A stretch of 31,198 nt of DNA, from positions 1 to 31,198 of the forward strand of contig CAWCAG010000008.1 of the NCBI GenBank assembly GCA_963793425.1. Reading direction: 5' to 3'. The DNA is from an uncultured cyanobacterium. Its GTDB lineage: Bacteria > Cyanobacteriota > Cyanobacteriia > Cyanobacteriales > CAWCAG01. Every line of letters starts with the position of its first letter. The stretch's first letter is position 1. Position numbers: made by a program. Below, one piece after another: positions 22,501-28,500 of this stretch.

Positions 22501-25500
22501 TATCTATTTGTCACCAATCAAGTAACAGATAAAAACACTCAAGGACACTTTGCTGACTCTTACTATCTTTTTCGTATCTTACAACTTTGGTTTAAAAAAC
22601 AATTACCAAAATTAACTCTCAAAGCAATTACTTTACCTGCTGAAGTACCTGCTAATAACCAAGATGCTCTACTTGACTATTATCATCAATTTTTTAACCA
22701 AAACATAACTAGTTCAGATACACTCCTTCTAAGTACAAAAGGGGGAACTCCTCAAATGCAAACTGCTTTGCAAATTCAATCTCTTTCTTCTACCGCAGAG
22801 AAACAGCTTTTTTTATCGCCGCAGTTAGCAATTAAACGTATTTTAGCTGGTGAATATTCCCAATGCTACTTTCACTTCTTACTGGCGTTATCTTCGTAGG
22901 CAAAAGTATCAAACAGTAAACCAAATTTTGCAACGTTGGGATTTTGAAGGCTCTAGAGAGGTTTTACTTGATTGGCAAAATACTTTAGACTTTTTAAGTG
23001 ACAATATTACCGACGATAGTACTCTTCCCAAGAATAGTAGATTAATTGCTAGTGTTAATCAGAGTTTAGAGTTTGCTTTACGCTACTTTAATTTAGATAT
23101 TAAAGGGGTAGAAAATTTACCCTTAACTGAAGATTTAAAATGGATAAAAGATATTAAAAGTAACTACGACCCTCTACTCAATTTATATACTCAGTGTTGT
23201 ATTTTCTGGAATCTTAACCAAATGGCTAACTTTCTTTCTCGTTTAGGTTCCTTTTGTGAAGAAATCCTTCACGAGTTAATTCGTCAGTTAGGAGGAGAGA
23301 AATATTTTGATAAGCAGTCTGCCCCCCATGATTGGCATTTATGTAAACAAAGAGTAGAAGAAAAGCTTTGGCAGGAGTTTGCTTTGCTAGAACGTAGTAC
23401 TAATTATAGTTTTGCTAGGTGGGACTTTCAAAAGAAACCTCGGTATCGCCTACCAGGACGATTTAGCAAGCGCAATTTTGTTGAAGCACTCGTAAAATAC
23501 CAAGGTAGAGACAATGCAGCTTGGCAAGATATTATTAAATACTTAACCCAGTTAGATTATTGGTTAGAAAAGCGTAATCAATTAATCCACAGTGCTGAAG
23601 GTATCTCAAAAGAAAGAATGAAGAAAATCTTAGCAGAAGATAGAACAAACAATAACAAAAAACCAGACAAATTTAGCCCTAATCCTCACCAAGCCTGTGG
23701 ACGAGATGAAATCTTAACTGTTATGACTATCTTGTTGCAAACCACCTACAAGCTTTTATCTCAGCCCTCTCCTCACCATCTTAACCCCGATGCTCCCTAC
23801 TACATTTATTCCCAAATAGCTAATTGGATACAGCAAAAATTAAAACCAGAAAAACTGGCCTAGAAGCCAGTTTCTAGCTGTTAACTCTCCTCCTGCCTTG
23901 CTGCTACAATTTCAATGGCTATTGAAACCATAGCCGGAACAATCTCCGCTAGGAAAGGGCCTTCATTGCAAGCAGCTATACCGCCACAAAGTGCGATCGC
24001 TACTACTTTTACTGTTAGGAGGTTGTTGAGTTTTTTGAGGTTGTGCAGTTTGGCTAAGGGTTTGCGGTTTGTAGCGGTCTGTTGTTGGAAAGGTTTGCCT
24101 TGCTGCATTTGCTCGTTGCCTCTTGGGTTTTCCTTACATTCACTAAGTTACAGGAGGTTTCTGTTAGAATCTACATTAGAAATGCGAATGACGATTTTTC
24201 TTTTGAAGCTATTCTCTCTCAACTATGGTCACAAGTCATTTCTTAATTGGTGTACCTGGTAGTGGTAAATCGACTTTTGCCCAAACCCTAGCCCAAGCAA
24301 TACCTGATGCTGTCATCATCTCCACTGATGCTATTCGTAGTAAATTGTTTGGTCAGGAGGATATTTTAGACCAATGGCCAGAAGTGGAAGCAGAACTGAT
24401 TAAGCAAATGGAAGAGGCTGTAGCTACCCAAAAAACGATTATTTATGATGCTACTAACTTTAAGCGATCGCTACGTTTGGAATTACTGCAAAAGTTAGGT
24501 CGTTTGCAATTGCAGTGGATAGCCTGGTATCTCAAAACTCCCTTAGAAGTTTGTTATCGCCAGAATCAAAAACGCAACCGTCGAGTACCGGAGGAAGTTA
24601 TTGACCAAATGAATAGGTATTTGCGTTCCTTTCCTCCCCACGTAGCAGAAGGTTTTGTCACGGTGAAAGTTATTAAACCTCACCAGGAGAAGTTTGCCCC
24701 TAATGCTATTACTAAGGTGATGGAAAAACTGCCCTTAACTATAGCTACTCGCTCTAGTCGCACTACCCTAAATTCTCATCTCCAACTCCACCAATATTCT
24801 CTTTTAGTAGATTTTGAAAGGTTAATTTACTTAATTTCCTTTCTCATTAACTTTAGCTCCTCTCACCCTCCTCTTTCTGTAGTGGAAATTACTGCCGAGA
24901 TAGGGCAAGAATACGGCCAAGTCTATGCTGATGAAAATGCGATCGCCACTGACTTAGCTTGGTTGGAAAAAAATGGTTTTTGTAACAGCTTAGGAAAAGG
25001 AGAAGCTACTACCCAAGAAATTACCTTAATGCCCCTTGGGGAGCAAGAAATTATTACCCATCAATACTCAGATAGAGAACCCTTCTTACGGCTTCTTGGT
25101 ACTATTCGTTTCCTCATTCATCACCCCTTCACCTACAACTCTGATGCTGGTGGTAGTCTCAACAGTTTGATTGCAGCCCTTAGAGAGGAAGGAATCATTA
25201 CCTACAACTACGCTGATAGAGTTCGTAAAGATATCGAAAAAGTACTCAAGCCCTACGGTATTATGCCCAATCATCCCCAAAAGAAAGGTTACTACGCTGG
25301 AACAGCTATCTTAAGTGAAACGGAATTAAAGCAGGTTTTTTCTGTCCTCCAGTCCCAAGCTGCCAGCTTAAATGACCCTGTGGCAGTAGCAGCCTATCAA
25401 AAACTAGGTGAACGTTTAGGGCTGAGTAAAATCGACCAAGAAAAAGTCTACCCCATTCGTGCCATTGGTACTAGTTCGATTATTGACACTAACCGTTTAG

Positions 25501-28500
25501 CAGGTAGCGCCTTACTCAATAAATTAGAAGTGGTGGAAAAGGCTATTTATGCAGGAGAATTATTGGAATTAAAGCCCCTGGCTGGTGGTGGTAGGTTTGC
25601 TAGTGATGAGGAAGAATATTTCCGTGCTTTTCCTTTGCAAATTGTCTTCCATAATTTAGCTTGGTATCTCGGCTATGAAAAACAGCTTGCCAATAAAGAA
25701 ACCCTTTTTAAGTTTCAACGTCTTGACCGTCTTTTTTTGGCTAGGAAGTTAGGTAAAGCTAGGGGGAGAAACAGCACTGAAAAATCCCTTACCAAGTTGC
25801 AAAGACTCTACGAAGCTAGTGCAGGTATTTATTTAGGAGCAACCCCTCAACAGCAACAAGCCTATCTCAGTAGGGATAAAAAGCGCCGTTCCACAACAGA
25901 AACAGTGGTGGAGTTGTGGTGCAATGACTACAGTTTTCAGTTTATCAGCGAAGGAACAAAGCGTTTCCGACCCCAACAGTTAGCTATGTCCCCTGCCCCT
26001 GGTAAGTCATCTTCCCGTATGTTTACCCTCAAGCCTACAGGGGATAAAAAGTTTCCTTATCGTTTTCAGGTTACTTTACCCTCTTGGTCTTTGGATGATG
26101 TTGATTTACTTACCTGGGTAGTTGCTTGGGGAGAAAAAATTAAGGTTATTCGTCCTCAGAAACTGGTTGATTATGTTACTGATTTTGCTATTAATCTTTC
26201 TCAACTTTACGAAGTAGGAAAACAGGATTAAGTCTTGCTTTATATTTATAGGTAGGTATTGAAGAGTTTATAAAAAGCTAGAAGTTATTTTATGATTAAG
26301 TTGTTAGAAAAAGCTATTAATCAAATTAAACTGCTACCTGAAAAAGAGCAAAGAAGTTTGAGCGTCTTTGGCGATGGCTTAAAGAAGTCGAAATTTCTGA
26401 TATTTGCTTAAACAGTGTGAGCGGAAGCTGGCTGTAGGTATCGTAAACAAATAAAAAATAGTACTCGATTTTCAACTAAAAAGGAGTATATCAATCAGTT
26501 TGGATTGCATATACTCCTTGTTTTTATTCTGTTAGTTTTTCCGTTATGGAAAAGAGTTAAAAAAGAGCAAGTTGACTCTAGTCAGGCAAGTTTCCATTCT
26601 GTTAGTTTTTCCGTTATGGAAAAGACGGAAAATCGAAGTTGAGTTACTGAACAAAATAAAGTTTCCATTCTGTTAGTTTTTCCGTTATGGAAAAGAAGCC
26701 ATGGATTGTACTCCTTGCCGGACGGTAAGTTTCCATTCTGTTAGTTTTTCCGATATGGAAAAGAGTTGCGAAATCTGCGGGCAAAGCGAAGGCTTCCAAT
26801 GGTTTCCATTCTGTTAGTTTTTCCGTTATGGAAAAGGAGCATAGTATTCATTGCGTATAGCAGAGCTGTACTGTTTCCATTCTGTTAGTTTTTCCCATAG
26901 GGAAAAGGTAATCCGTGCTGAGGTCAGTATTGTTTCCGACACGGAGGAGGTGTTTCCATTCTGTTAGTTTTTCCGATAGGGAAAAGCTTTTGAACAAATT
27001 GCAGATATCAAGGTTCAGTTAATCTTTAAAGTTTCCATTCTGTTAGTTTTTCCGTATATGGAAAAGGCTGCCCTCTGAAACCCTTACCCTGACTGCGCTC
27101 CTCAGCGAATTTTCGTGGGATAGCTTTTTAGGGTCAAATAGTTGACACAGATTCTCAATAACGAGAAACTTCACCCACCTCAACCCCTTACTGGGAGAGT
27201 CATTCGCGGGATAGCACGAAATAATGCGGGTTTCAGCGTTTTACAACTTCCCACGAAAGAGGAAGTTATAACGAGCTTTGACTATTATAACTCAATTCAT
27301 AAACTTCAAGCAACCTCTCATCAGCAAAACTGCTTAATTAAGAGCAAATTTAAGCAAAATTTATAAACAATACAAACCAAAATTACTTTAATTCCTTGCC
27401 AGATAAGCGCTACAGCCATTACTCAACCAAATTGACCCCATCATCAAGAAAGTTCTCTCCCTAACCTGAAGCTAAGGAAAGAACTTTCCCAGAGTCACAT
27501 CGTTACTTAGAGTAACTTTGTTTTCTTGTATGTTTCCATTCTGTTAGGTTTCCTAGTAATAGGAAACATTTATAGAATAATGAAAAGAAAAAAGGAAAGA
27601 AATATCATCTTGCTATTGATATTTCCAGCAAACCATGTATCACTCCTTGGGCTTTTTATCTTTACAAAGTTGTCCCCACAAATCTTCAGGAATCTCTTCA
27701 AAATGCTCTAATAAAAAATTCATTACAGCTAAATGACGTAAATCATTGGCAGTAGGGCGACGATAATAACGTCCCTGGCGAAACCAACCTTGCACAGTAG
27801 AACGAGAGCGGTTACAGATTTCAGCCATTTGTTCGTACTTAACACCCCACTTAAAGTAAAACTTTTGAGGAGTCATGCCCAACTCACAGTAACTATAGAG
27901 ACTGATTAGCTCCAACTCTCTGTCGCCAATCCTACGACTCTCACTCATCTTCAAACCTCTCTAAATCGTACTCCCAAGCCGTATCTACTAAACACCAACG
28001 GGAAGAAAGGGAGTCAGGGTCTAGGAGGATTAGATAGCACCACATCCACCTTCCCGACTCCGGGGCATAGCCATAGAAGCGCCCAATAACCATGCCCCAA
28101 TCTGTTAACTCTGGTTCTTCCAAAGGAGTCCAACGAACAATGGAACCGAAAGGAAACTGAGGAGGAGTAGCATCAAGGAAAAAAGCTGGTGCATCAGAGG
28201 GAAGAGGTAACTGTTGGGCGTGTTGTAGAAACTGGGAAACCACTTCTCCTTGCCCATCGCGAATACTATGGCCATAAACTCGGAAACATTCAGGATGGAC
28301 GGAAACGGTAAGATGCTTAATCAACAAAGTAGCTAAAGTTTCTAAATCTTTAACATCAGATGGATGAGAGTTAATCGTTGCTAGTTTTTGCAATAACTCA
28401 ATGATGCCAAAATCATTCAAGGCTTTGTAGTAGCCCGGAGGTTGTTGAGTTAGATATTTGTGTTGATAGTTGAACATAGTTTTTCTGTGTAAGGATTGGC

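Follow-up and report, generated by a model that had tools for sequence, protein, structure and literature searches.

The window analysed here, a 31,198-nucleotide stretch from an uncultured cyanobacterium, carries a type III-B CRISPR locus. The effector operon cmr2-cmr3-cmr4-cmr5-cmr6 occupies positions 9305..16773 of the + strand, and its Cmr2 has the GGDD motif at residue 787 and no HD dipeptide. On the same strand lie CRISPR array A (19778-21200; 20 repeats, the last one degenerate) and array B (21685-22005; five repeats), in both of which the repeats end in ...GAATGGAAAC. A hairpin read from the sequence, CCCTCT-8 nt-AGAGGG followed by six T (22001..22026, + strand), immediately follows the final repeat of array B and was not among the results of the consensus scan. 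The csx1b gene (CARF-HEPN; PADLOC PDLC01808; 22132..23863, + strand) is split into two ORFs, 22132-22899 and 22850-23863, which match positions 1-227 and 227-529 of PDLC01808. Alignment with nine full-length and three partial homologues places the frame switch at about 22866-22872, and base 22873 is missing from the contigs of three of four runs. Without this base csx1b becomes a single ORF of 576 aa with the HEPN motif RNQLIH, so that its two-ORF appearance is due to one extra base.

Directly downstream of the csx1b halves, and in the same direction, is the gene studied here (P0001; 24225..26231, + strand), which we call the kinase-WYL gene. In agreement with the earlier note, which had also correctly placed the gene between CRISPR arrays in a cmr/RT-cas1 locus, its frame is open throughout its 668 aa; the opposite strand abounds in stop codons. 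Beyond the gene come array C (26515..27066, - strand; eight repeats), transcribed towards the kinase-WYL gene to judge from repeat orientation, cas2 (28866-29144, - strand) and RT-cas1 (29196-31196, - strand). The csx1 gene upstream, the complete transcription-factor module and the conserved box described below were absent from that note.

Relatives of the gene are widespread in cyanobacteria: at E<=1e-10 the family was matched in 121 of 401 sampled genomes of the phylum, comparable with the 93 of 301 counted before, and the matches listed include at least 120 full-length proteins with 41-47% identity. We also recovered, with the values given earlier (E 1.6e-21, 36% identity to residues 327-595), the WYL-like paralogue, a 402-aa ORF present on contigs C2 and C6. 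The kinase-WYL gene is linked to type III-B CRISPR loci, and more strongly than the 4 of 11 homologues reported previously had suggested. Among loci with at least 8 kb of upstream sequence, type III-B effector genes occur in 44/55 and csx1 in 41/55, and the nearest array lies at a median distance of 228 bp (n=43), with arrays within 1.5 kb on both sides in 12 loci in all. When the ORFs of 80 loci and of the window were clustered without bias, the commonest neighbours were Cmr6 (48/81), Cmr3 (46/81), Cmr4 (45/81), short Cas10 (41/81), Cmr5 (39/81) and Csx1 (36+10 of 81); no other DNA-binding protein was found among the conserved neighbours of these 81 loci. Such counts are not independent, since the loci are phylogenetically related, many of them from Nostocales. 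Labelled CRISPR features were found in all but six of 32 loci with full flanks.

The Pfam calls on the protein (AAA_33, E 2.7e-25, residues 6-133; KTI12, 1.1e-11; WYL, 3e-4, residues 461-503) reproduced the earlier ones exactly. Residues 1-150 (24225..24674, + strand) form a P-loop kinase domain assigned to the polynucleotide-kinase/PSTK clade. In structural ranking the kinase of Clostridium thermocellum Pnkp came first (CthPnkp; VIA Z 20.3, rmsd 2.3 A, 161 residues aligned of a 170-residue chain), ahead of PSTK (17.9) and T4 Pnk (17.5), and a PDB profile match to the CthPnkp kinase (5e-16) aligned the S-x-D-x-x-R, DATN and lid Arg motifs. As the Walker A motif, D35/R38, D75-A-T-N78 and R117/R119 are invariant or at least 90% conserved in 36 sequences, the domain appears catalytically intact. 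The description of a type III-linked accessory gene combining an intact-looking P-loop kinase with a WYL domain is supported.

A kinase plus a WYL sensor is nevertheless an incomplete account of the protein, because its C-terminal ~400 residues are predicted to form a complete wHTH-linker-WYL-WCX transcription-factor module resembling DriD, PafBC and BrxR. In the AF2 model (overall pLDDT 76, C-terminal half 66), a first helical winged-helix-like domain spans residues 194-249 (24804..24971, + strand), with helices at 194-210, 219-230 and 237-249 and pLDDT of ~63-95 per 10-residue block; the alignment with the PafBC chain begins here. The second winged-helix domain, residues 284-341 (25074..25247, + strand), appears to be the counterpart of the DNA-binding wHTH of DriD, which in full matches the model from this domain onward, DriD residue 1/2 of the full-length chains aligning with model residue 94/95 (protein residue ~282). 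No Pfam HTH model matched anywhere in the 668 residues, and the wHTH assignment rests on the AF2 model and on modest Z scores of 6-8.4, near the range that the tool flags as possibly common. The WYL beta-barrel has its strands at residues 445-512 (25557..25760, + strand) and matches the DriD C-domain (Z 8.4); its Pfam score of 21.1 bits is just under the cut-off of 21.8, whereas the PADLOC model of CRISPR-associated WYL proteins scores far better (1.9e-15 over residues 428-654), and W480-Y481-L482, R499, D501 and R502 are invariant in 36 sequences. For the putative WCX domain, residues 559-664 (25899..26216, + strand), the Pfam match is at E 0.093, and further indications come from PF25583, precomputed in many relatives, a profile match to the PafC C-terminus (8e-4) and PafBC 6sj9 (Z 6.5 over 361-476 in model numbering). 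Taken as a whole, the C-terminal half matches DriD with a Foldseek value of 1.2e-7 over 402 columns (VIA Z 8.4 for WYL plus WCX), and also RNA polymerase-bound PafBC (Z 8.0), BrxR (Foldseek) and 6oaw (Z 6.3).

The loci share a second feature, a directional 12-mer box. In the window it occurs as TTCGTCATTCGC at 22045..22056 (+ strand; 31.7 bits, the best site of the genome), 76 nt upstream of the csx1b start, and at 9229..9240 (+ strand; 24.8 bits), 65 nt upstream of the cmr2 start. The one-mismatch form ATCGTCATTCGC at 24184..24195 (- strand; 18.4 bits, third-best site), 30-41 nt upstream of the kinase-WYL start, is in reversed orientation and points leftward. These are the top three sites of a weight-matrix scan of the 5.28-Mb genome, all inside the window. 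The box has 3 matches in the window, against 0.11 expected. Allowing one mismatch, 138 matches were counted in 1.32 Mb of loci, an enrichment of about 29-fold over thirty shuffled arms (mean 4.8, maximum 20). Across loci the box precedes cas10s, cmr2L, csx1b and cas1; 36 matches lie 60-279 nt upstream of kinase-WYL starts (median 73, mostly 66-75 nt), although only 35 of 78 kinase-WYL genes have a forward box with at most one mismatch within 300 nt. The box forms clear inverted pairs in just 12 cases. The exact 19-mer was found in 36 stretches in 596 Gb of sequence, 30 of them cyanobacterial, and a kinase-WYL gene lies within 8 kb in 25 of these 30 (22 of 26 distinct contigs). With up to one mismatch, the box is absent from pSYSA and from type III-B loci whose only WYL relatives are split or lack the kinase. 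The association between box and protein is a correlation. Because the cas genes themselves also keep company with the box, it may instead be the site of another factor or part of the leader.

Based on these data, a role as regulator is likely, and better supported than the alternative left open before, an effector with a kinase output, because the protein has a complete transcription-factor module and the box tracks its gene. Our preferred reading, to which we assign a probability of roughly 0.5, is that of a locus-specific, ligand-gated transcription factor that binds the box and carries a kinase for 5'-OH ends of nucleic acids. In the promoters of csx1, cas1-cas2, the cmr/cas10 operon and the kinase-WYL gene itself, the box would coincide with the -35 region or lie slightly upstream of it; this geometry was read by eye, because a sigma-70 consensus scan gave no promoter just downstream of the window boxes. 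By binding there, the protein would set the expression of the whole locus, including arrays between box and gene, and type III-B loci are thus probably switched on or off by it, whether by activation or by repression. The Cmr4 and Csx1 RNases leave 5'-OH ends. Cleavage by both could supply such ends to the N-terminal polynucleotide-5'-kinase-like enzyme, whose substrate we infer to be 5'-OH ends of RNA (or DNA) fragments, and their phosphorylation may create or destroy the ligand that the WYL domain reads, a single-stranded nucleic acid. If so, expression of the locus would be coupled to ongoing interference. Against this kinase role stands the setting of 20 sampled stand-alone paralogues, which are flanked by glgC- and dnaJ-like genes, with no RNA or CRISPR genes nearby.

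It is possible, though clearly less probable, that the enzyme itself is the output: the WYL domain would sense a ligand or RNA and switch a kinase acting on RNA ends, for instance on Csx1/Cmr cleavage products that are healed or marked for decay or repair, with DNA binding secondary or absent. The strict conservation of catalytic residues, the fold nearest to RNA-repair polynucleotide kinases and the frequent co-occurrence of the HEPN RNase Csx1, whose gene abuts the kinase-WYL gene in the window, agree with this, as does the binding of ssRNA or ssDNA by the WYL domains of WYL1 and PIF1, mentioned in the part of PMC9122601 consulted. On pSYSA the CRISPR3 array of Synechocystis has a stand-alone kinase right behind it, beside AlkB. 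An enzymatic output, however, does not account for the pair of conserved winged-helix domains, the resemblance of the whole chain to DriD/PafBC or the box before the gene and the cas operons, and no phosphatase or ligase partner was found among the conserved neighbours of the 81 clustered loci. The same module and box are left aside if the protein, co-transcribed with an upstream array, helps crRNA biogenesis by phosphorylating the 5'-OH of pre-crRNA or crRNA. Same-orientation arrays end 128-274 nt before the start codon in 11 loci, no cas6 occurs among the conserved neighbours of the 81 loci and the only Cas6 of the genome is on another contig, yet many loci have no co-directional upstream array and the gene persists in array-less loci, and we regard such a function as quite improbable.

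Two other readings, each unlikely, keep the WYL regulator. The P-loop domain may be a nucleotide-sensing or ATPase switch, not an enzyme that transfers phosphate to nucleic acid, and tune the transcription factor to the ATP/NTP state, for example after ATP consumption by Cas10. KTI12-type relatives act as ATPases, KTI12 matches at 1.1e-11, and both Cas10 forms of these loci are ATP-consuming and, with GGDD kept and HD absent, signalling-only; but a mere sensor would need neither the conserved DATN nor the Asp-x-x-Arg pair, which aligns with the phosphoacceptor-side motif of CthPnkp. Alternatively, the box may be a leader or promoter module for another host factor, as its directional, non-palindromic form and its constant company of cas genes would allow. 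Against this, it precedes the kinase-WYL gene also in loci without CRISPR genes (L052, L073), it is missing from type III-B loci without the fused protein, and in the genome it is all but confined to this locus, contrary to what one would expect of a general host factor. Finally, the suggestion that a zeta-toxin-like small-molecule kinase phosphorylates a cell-wall precursor and so brings about abortive infection has become very improbable: the Zeta_toxin match (E 0.0087, residues 5-50) covers the P-loop only and reaches 16 bits against a cut-off of 22.3, polynucleotide kinases and PSTK rank first structurally, and the 81 clustered loci show no conserved antitoxin-like partner.

The architecture had already been listed: a statement that the fusion is not named by Makarova et al. 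(2014) is wrong for their supplements. Supplementary DataSheet6 contains 24 cyanobacterial AAA_33+WYL proteins and DataSheet8 five of them in CARF neighbourhoods, besides AAA_33-type domains joined to further CRISPR sensors (AAA_33+DUF1887, Csx3+AAA_33). These AAA_33+WYL proteins belong to the same family as the kinase-WYL gene: DataSheet6 members among our 41-47% matches include Halothece PCC7418_2638, the Cylindrospermum stagnale 'putative kinase' and those of Calothrix PCC 6303 and Anabaena PCC 7108, and the two PCC 7002 members, matched by coordinates, came up in the plasmid search with 40% identity. Makarova et al. give the cluster as a bare list headed 'SF-I-Helicase-N-terminus+WYL'; the portions of the main text consulted discuss no kinase, DNA site or type III-B specificity for it, and we found no characterisation of it. 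Split forms exist in the same kind of locus, as in two further type III-B loci an HTH-WYL gene and a kinase gene are separate but adjacent.

Among known systems, the Pnkp kinase and T4 Pnk share with the N-terminal domain the fold, the P-loop, the Asp/Arg pair after strand 2, DATN and the lid arginines. Unlike them, the kinase-WYL protein lacks phosphatase and ligase-like domains as well as a Hen1 partner, and it scores 43.5 bits with NCBIfam bacter_Pnkp against a cut-off of 750. The sigma-54-dependent regulator predicted to respond to RNA-end chemistry (PMC4012209) has unrelated domains and offers an analogy only, in its sensor-coupled logic. WYL1 of type VI-D (PDB 6oaw) is also a CRISPR-associated WYL protein; according to the portion of PMC9122601 used here it binds ssRNA and modulates the effector. 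WYL1 acts directly on Cas13d and has no kinase domain, and we saw no promoter box described for it. BrxR/CapW and Sll7009, the latter a repressor of the type I-D CRISPR1 of Synechocystis, are likewise encoded beside the defence locus that they control, but they are repressors of ~300 aa without an enzyme domain, and the relevant sections of PMC9122601 and PMC4012209 describe no type III-B target or box for them. The best structural matches to residues ~280-668 are DriD of Caulobacter and PafBC of actinobacteria, which have the same order of wHTH, helical linker, WYL and WCX at a sequence identity of only 16-18%, and lack both the kinase and a second wHTH. They are activators gated by single-stranded DNA, found on RNA polymerase at promoters (PDB titles 9pfq, 9pfv, 9fnd), and serve the DNA-damage response, not CRISPR.

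The reading that best fits the 668-aa protein encoded at 24225-26231 (+) is that of a WYL regulator of type III-B CRISPR loci which carries a kinase. The finding of the earlier note, a kinase fused to a WYL sensor between CRISPR arrays, is real, and the protein is a member of a catalogued CRISPR-associated family. Its reading frame is open, and stops abound on the opposite strand. Of 5.8 billion proteins searched, 307 matched; among the best 120 of these, the named sources are cyanobacterial almost throughout, and the matches cover 95-100% of the query (58% in one case) at 41-47% identity, besides one near-identical copy (99%). 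Annotations within the same 120 include 'WYL domain-containing protein', 'AAA family ATPase' and 'predicted kinase'. A match at E<=1e-10 was present in 121 of 401 sampled genomes of the phylum (about 30%), in line with the 93 of 301 reported before. Picosynechococcus PCC 7002 carries two plasmid copies of family members.

The N-terminal part of the protein resembles polynucleotide kinases. We obtained again the Pfam values of the earlier note, that is, AAA_33 at 2.7e-25 (residues 6-133), KTI12 at 1.1e-11 and WYL at 3e-4, the last with 21.1 bits just below the cut-off of 21.8. The nearest NCBIfam models of the N-terminal domain were those of PSTK (8.4e-20) and bacterial Pnkp (1.2e-11), both far under their equivalog cut-offs. 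In the AF2 model of the whole protein (mean pLDDT 76.2), the kinase domain spans residues 1-150, and its top superposition was with the kinase of Clostridium thermocellum Pnkp (CthPnkp; Z 20.3, rmsd 2.3 A, 161 aligned residues of a 170-residue chain), followed by PSTK (Z 17.9) and T4 Pnk (Z 17.5, rmsd 1.7 A). A profile search against PDB sequences gave the same order and aligned the S-x-D-x-x-R, DATN and lid-arginine motifs with CthPnkp. The P-loop, the Asp/Arg pair after strand 2, the DxTN-type motif and the lid arginines have catalytic roles in polynucleotide kinases. The domain has the fold of the polynucleotide 5'-hydroxyl kinases of the Pnkp/T4 Pnk clade together with their motif set, G9-x2-G12-x-G14-K15-S16-T17, D35/R38, D75-A-T-N78 and R117/R119. 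In an alignment of 36 members, the Walker A motif, D35, R38, Y74-D-A-T-N78, R81, N114, R117 and R119 are invariant or at least 90% conserved. The reading as PSTK, an enzyme with a C-terminal tRNA-binding domain, was rejected on score and architecture (TIGR03574 71.3 bits against a cut-off of 290.5, over the kinase part only).

The remainder of the protein probably forms a complete transcriptional regulator. The PADLOC model of CRISPR-associated WYL proteins (PDLC01652) matched residues 428-654 at 1.9e-15, and the AF2 model contains two three-helix units (residues 194-249 and 284-341), long helices (365-400), a WYL beta barrel (445-512) and an alpha/beta C-terminal domain (559-664). The W480-Y481-L482 triad is invariant in the 36-member alignment, and R499, D501 and R502 are likewise invariant or at least 90% conserved. 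No Pfam helix-turn-helix family matched the protein at E<=1. With Foldseek, the approximately 400 residues after the kinase retrieved DriD with single-stranded and cognate DNA (E 1.2e-7, 402 columns), PafBC on RNA polymerase and BrxR. Full-length DriD aligned from the second three-helix unit on, and over 402-414 columns in Foldseek, at Z values of 6-8. When the C-terminal half was folded separately (pLDDT 65.9, weaker than the same region of the whole-protein model), it matched the C-domain of DriD (Z 8.4, including the Sm-like SH3 barrel of the WYL domain), followed by PafBC (Z 8.0) and 6oaw, a 'CRISPR Cas-related protein' (Z 6.3); the full DriD alignment started at model residue 94/95, which is protein residue ~282, in the second winged helix. 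For the WCX domain, PF25583 is precomputed in many relatives and reaches a weak E of 0.093 in the protein itself, and the same region matched the C-terminus of PafC (8e-4) and PafBC 6sj9 (Z 6.5). The Z values for the C-terminal half are modest, yet these regulators rank first and are consistent with the HMM evidence; the models thus suggest that a polynucleotide-kinase-like domain and an additional winged helix precede a complete wHTH-WYL-WCX regulator.

In order to evaluate the linkage with CRISPR systems, an alignment-based scan with one genome per species was used, which gave 163 relatives, and the best 80 loci were taken with flanks of up to 10 kb. All 987 ORFs of at least 90 aa from these loci and the window were clustered first and the clusters named afterwards. 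The most widespread neighbours were Cmr6 (48 of 81 loci), Cmr3 (46), Cmr4 (45), a short HD-less Cas10 (PDLC02051; 41), Cmr5 (39) and Csx1 (PDLC01508; 36), followed by Cas1 (20), Cas2 (17), the second Csx1 type present in the window, here csx1b (10), and long Cmr2 (8). Placement in or beside cas cassettes recurred in many species, as expected of a type III accessory gene: where at least 8 kb was available upstream, type III effector genes occurred in 44 of 55 loci and csx1 in 41, and with at least 8 kb on both sides effector genes occurred in 26 of 32. The other six of these 32 (loci L002, L030, L042, L048, L052 and L073) had no labelled CRISPR feature in their flanks. Of the 80 loci, 48 contained arrays according to a simple repeat finder; the nearest array with at least four repeats lay at a median of 228 bp from the kinase-WYL gene (n = 43), within 500 bp in 34 cases. 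These flanking arrays share one repeat family, ending in ...AATTAATGGAAAC, and the downstream arrays with readable orientation run towards the gene in all loci but L077. In a clade of Calothrix-type loci (L046, L047, L048 and L052), the flanks hold neither type III effector genes nor arrays of four or more repeats. L046 retains a csx1b fragment, and in all four a 195-aa ORF with no Pfam or PADLOC match follows the kinase-WYL gene by ~71 nt on the same strand.

Two arrangements were found. In the first, the kinase-WYL gene stands divergently upstream of cas10(short)-cmr3-cmr4-cmr5-cmr6-csx1 and arrays abut it; in the second, it follows cmr2(long)-cmr3-cmr4-cmr5-cmr6-csx1b at a distance of -86 to +16 nt (-427 nt in locus L041). 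The long Cmr2 (9305-12430 in the window) and the short Cas10 (L067:3066-4880) both keep GGDD and have no HD dipeptide anywhere, so that these type III-B systems presumably rely on cyclic-oligoadenylate signalling to Csx1 and, judged from sequence, look like signalling-only systems.

The window belongs to the second arrangement, broken up by IS elements and arrays. As the earlier note had described, cmr2-cmr6 (9305-16773), arrays A and B (19778-22005), an inverted array C (26515-27066) and cas2 and RT-cas1 on the minus strand surround the gene; a split csx1 directly upstream of it had been overlooked. The ORFs 22132-22899 and 22850-23863 are the two halves of a CARF-HEPN csx1 (PADLOC PDLC01808 positions 1-227 and 227-529). 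Nine full-length and three partial homologues align across the junction, placing the frame switch at about 22866-22872. We checked this junction in four public DNA runs of one study, in which the stretch is present as contigs: three runs lack base 22873 at full contig depth, and the fourth has two contigs that break off there. Without this base, csx1 is a single 576-aa ORF with the HEPN motif R-x4-H. Therefore, the split is an assembly error or a strain variant, and the gene is not dead in the population. A PDDEXK_2/DUF4351 gene and an IS200/IS605 tnpA-tnpB pair (16851-19480) lie after cmr6 and before the arrays, so that the cmr operon stands apart from csx1b and the kinase-WYL gene, which adjoin each other in related loci of this type. 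Two small ORFs, of 115 aa (23915-24262, +) and 75 aa (23881-24108, -), were rejected as parts of the system, being conserved nowhere beyond the genome's own duplicate on contig C9, and no Rfam family reached its gathering score in the whole window.

Other features of the contig and genome were also observed. Just upstream of the cmr operon, 7458-9119 (-) encodes a 553-aa protein in which Pfam identifies the catalytic domain of a ResT/TelK telomere resolvase (1.5e-21), and on account of this domain the 31-kb contig may be part of a linear replicon or of a prophage with hairpin ends. Between the resolvase gene and the conserved box ahead of cmr2 (described below) there is a solitary degenerate CRISPR-repeat-like stretch (9183-9215), whose minus strand resembles the 5' half of the CCCTACCGATT... 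repeat family. Another lone degenerate repeat (27527-27567) lies about 460 bp beyond array C, and on its side of the array three small unannotated minus-strand ORFs (27640-28810) precede cas2, one of which (27640-27954) has relatives in six other loci. At the left contig end, amid IS630- and IS4-type transposase genes, there are genes for a glycosyltransferase (3-1547, -), whose match to 'GT4 in conflict systems' (PF20706) stays below threshold at 24.7 bits (cut-off 26), and for a DUF7919 protein (5904-6266, +; 1.5e-38). Contig C9 carries a duplicate of the upstream region and first ~90 codons of the kinase-WYL gene (C9:14710-14971; 67% protein identity), and the genome's only Cas6 gene lies on the same contig, about 11 kb from this fragment (C9:3609-3944).

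Alignment of 13 short divergent intergenic regions revealed conserved blocks, one of them an inverted repeat with the arm TTCGTCATTCGC, hereafter the box. Allowing one mismatch, it occurred 138 times in 1.32 Mb of loci, against a mean of 4.8 and a maximum of 20 for 30 shuffled versions. Thirty-six copies lie upstream of kinase-WYL start codons (range 60-279 nt, median 73, mostly 66-75 nt), and others precede short cas10, long cmr2 (60-67 nt), csx1b, cas1 (about 350-390 nt) and some other ORFs. The extended form is AAAT-TTCGTCATTCGC-ATGAAAA, followed after ~10 nt by a conserved hexamer that is TAGACT/TAGCAT-like or TTTACA-like according to the unit. This promoter geometry was judged by eye; a scan for sigma-70 consensus promoters gave none directly after the cmr2 box (0 found) or the csx1b box, and it also missed the hairpin after array B, which was read directly from the sequence. 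In loci with a co-directional upstream array, the box is upstream of the array (e.g., in L005) and may therefore drive array and kinase-WYL gene jointly. The box precedes the kinase-WYL gene also in L052 and L073, whose flanks hold no CRISPR genes, and in the other three Calothrix-type loci.

In the window, three copies were found against 0.11 expected, a number reached by none of 100 shuffles: at 9229-9240, 65 nt before cmr2; at 22045-22056, 76 nt before csx1b and just after the hairpin and T-run closing array B; and, with one mismatch, at 24184-24195 on the minus strand, 30-41 nt before the kinase-WYL gene. Under a weight matrix built from the other loci, these are the top sites of the 5.28-Mb genome (31.7, 24.8 and 18.4 bits; next site 17.9). 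The minus-strand copy lies at the consensus distance from a TAGATT hexamer, and on that strand a terminator-like hairpin follows at 23875-23850, so that a box-driven minus-strand transcript of ~300 nt (24160-23850) is conceivable; its 75-aa ORF is not conserved.

The exact box 19-mer was present in 36 stretches of a 596-Gb collection, 30 of them cyanobacterial. The six others had no cas or kinase-WYL match, and we estimate that about four such stretches would arise by chance. All 30 cyanobacterial stretches have a kinase-WYL gene and/or cas genes in the flank; the kinase-WYL gene is within 8 kb in 25 of them (22 of 26 distinct contigs), and of the five that lack it there, three are truncated by the end of the contig or the limit of the flank. 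Conversely, the box was not found, at up to one mismatch, in type III-B loci with only kinase-less or split WYL relatives (L083 of this genome, L120 and L121) or in plasmid pSYSA. Judging from this correlation, the most plausible protein to read the box, a candidate operator, is the kinase-WYL protein, since it is the only conserved DNA-binding candidate in these loci.

Kinase and regulator can also be encoded apart from each other. Two genomes have an HTH-WYL gene next to a stand-alone kinase gene on the same strand, separated by 26 nt in one case and about 320 nt in the other, both pairs within short-cas10 type III-B loci. In pSYSA of Synechocystis PCC 6803, a 171-aa kinase with 45.7% identity to residues 5-154 follows the CRISPR3 array of a type III-B system. 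Such arrangements support, at the level of gene order, a functional tie between the kinase module, the regulator module and the type III-B system. In this pSYSA locus (L081, 93265-95344), the kinase gene lies between a DUF6717 gene and a hypothetical gene, with an AlkB dioxygenase gene next, a group that may be a nucleic-acid repair or modification cluster. Another 20 stand-alone kinase paralogues had no cas genes nearby; glgC-like genes flank 13 of these loci and DnaJ 12, a housekeeping-like context that says nothing on the substrate.

The best-supported reading, by analogy with characterized WYL proteins, is that of a locus-specific transcription factor which would bind the box and sense a nucleic-acid ligand through its WYL domain, while 5'-OH ends would be the substrate of its fused polynucleotide-kinase-like domain. 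Ends of this kind are produced by Cmr4 and HEPN RNases, and cutting by Cmr4 and Csx1 would yield 5'-OH RNA fragments. A feedback loop in type III immunity, in which the protein is an enzyme-coupled sensor, could follow from this: fragments released by Cmr4 and Csx1 would be turned by the kinase into the 5'-phosphorylated single-stranded ligand of its own WYL domain, or the kinase would remove that ligand, and the protein, placed at the TTCGTCATTCGC box as DriD and PafBC are at the -35 region, would switch on the cmr operon, csx1, cas1-cas2, the arrays and its own gene. We consider this full loop improbable, at a probability of about 0.15.

Other explanations bear on the same evidence. The kinase might itself be the output, the protein acting as an RNA-end enzyme, or the P-loop domain might be an NTP switch; the catalytic motif set conserved beyond Walker A speaks for chemistry on ends and the attached regulator module for control. 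A helper of crRNA biogenesis would suit the proximity of the arrays and less so the loci whose flanks hold no CRISPR genes. The box might belong to another factor, as its presence before cas genes would allow, and its association with the kinase-WYL gene across cyanobacterial contigs favours the kinase-WYL protein. The weakest rival is a zeta-like toxin: the Pfam match reaches 16 bits against 22.3 over residues 5-50 only, the structural ranking favours polynucleotide kinases, and this reading was rejected on score and architecture.

Transcriptional control of type III CRISPR loci is largely unknown ground, for which the regulator reading of this family offers a concrete, testable case: it combines one conserved regulator candidate with a candidate operator ahead of each unit of the locus, and the attached enzyme suggests that the signal lies in RNA-end chemistry. 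If the coupling of kinase and ligand is true, it would be a new sensing principle for CRISPR regulation, and the complete loop would be the first case of a CRISPR-system transcription factor whose own kinase domain makes its signal; should the regulator part alone hold, this would still be the first proposed regulon of a cyanobacterial type III-B system. What makes the case interesting is that it provides a concrete candidate operator, a candidate for the signal chemistry, and hosts that are tractable. Picosynechococcus PCC 7002 is genetically tractable, and experiments are feasible because it has family members and a stand-alone kinase lies beside the Synechocystis CRISPR3 array.

The combination of domains has precedents in print. 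The main text of Makarova et al. (2014) names WYL fusions to Cas3, exoRNase, Mrr, HNH, SF-I helicase, AbiGII, BRCT and TerB. In its DataSheet6, a 46-member cluster headed 'SF-I-Helicase-N-terminus+WYL' contains 24 cyanobacterial AAA_33+WYL proteins of 678-815 aa, followed by at least 16 kinase-less relatives of 390-503 aa; listed members are among our full-length matches, at 41-47% identity. DataSheet8 has five AAA_33+WYL genes in CARF neighbourhoods, as well as AAA_33+DUF1887 and Csx3+AAA_33. Given these two lists, the architecture and its CRISPR neighbourhood are already catalogued. The tables of Shah et al. (2018; PMC6546367) include a Nostoc HTH-WYL cluster, a Csx3-AAA cluster and an unrelated 'kinase' cluster, and a 2024 NAR survey of type III ancillary genes excluded WYL proteins, presumed to be regulators, and left them to future study (PMC11229360). 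A literature search that included the locus tags of six family members found no published study of the protein, and as far as we searched, the polynucleotide-kinase assignment, the complete regulator module, the quantified linkage with type III-B and csx1, and the box are not in print.

Among known systems, bacterial Pnkp differs in being a kinase-phosphatase-ligase that works with Hen1. TIGR04075 scored 43.5 bits against a cut-off of 750, over the kinase part only, and no phosphatase, ligase or Hen1 was found among the clustered neighbours of the 80 loci and the window; a full bacterial Pnkp was therefore rejected on its three-domain architecture and equivalog score. According to their PDB titles, DriD was solved bound to single-stranded and cognate DNA and PafBC on RNA polymerase, and PIF1 and WYL1 follow the same pattern of nucleic-acid sensing by a WYL domain (PMC9122601), on the strength of which we suggest that pattern for the kinase-WYL protein.
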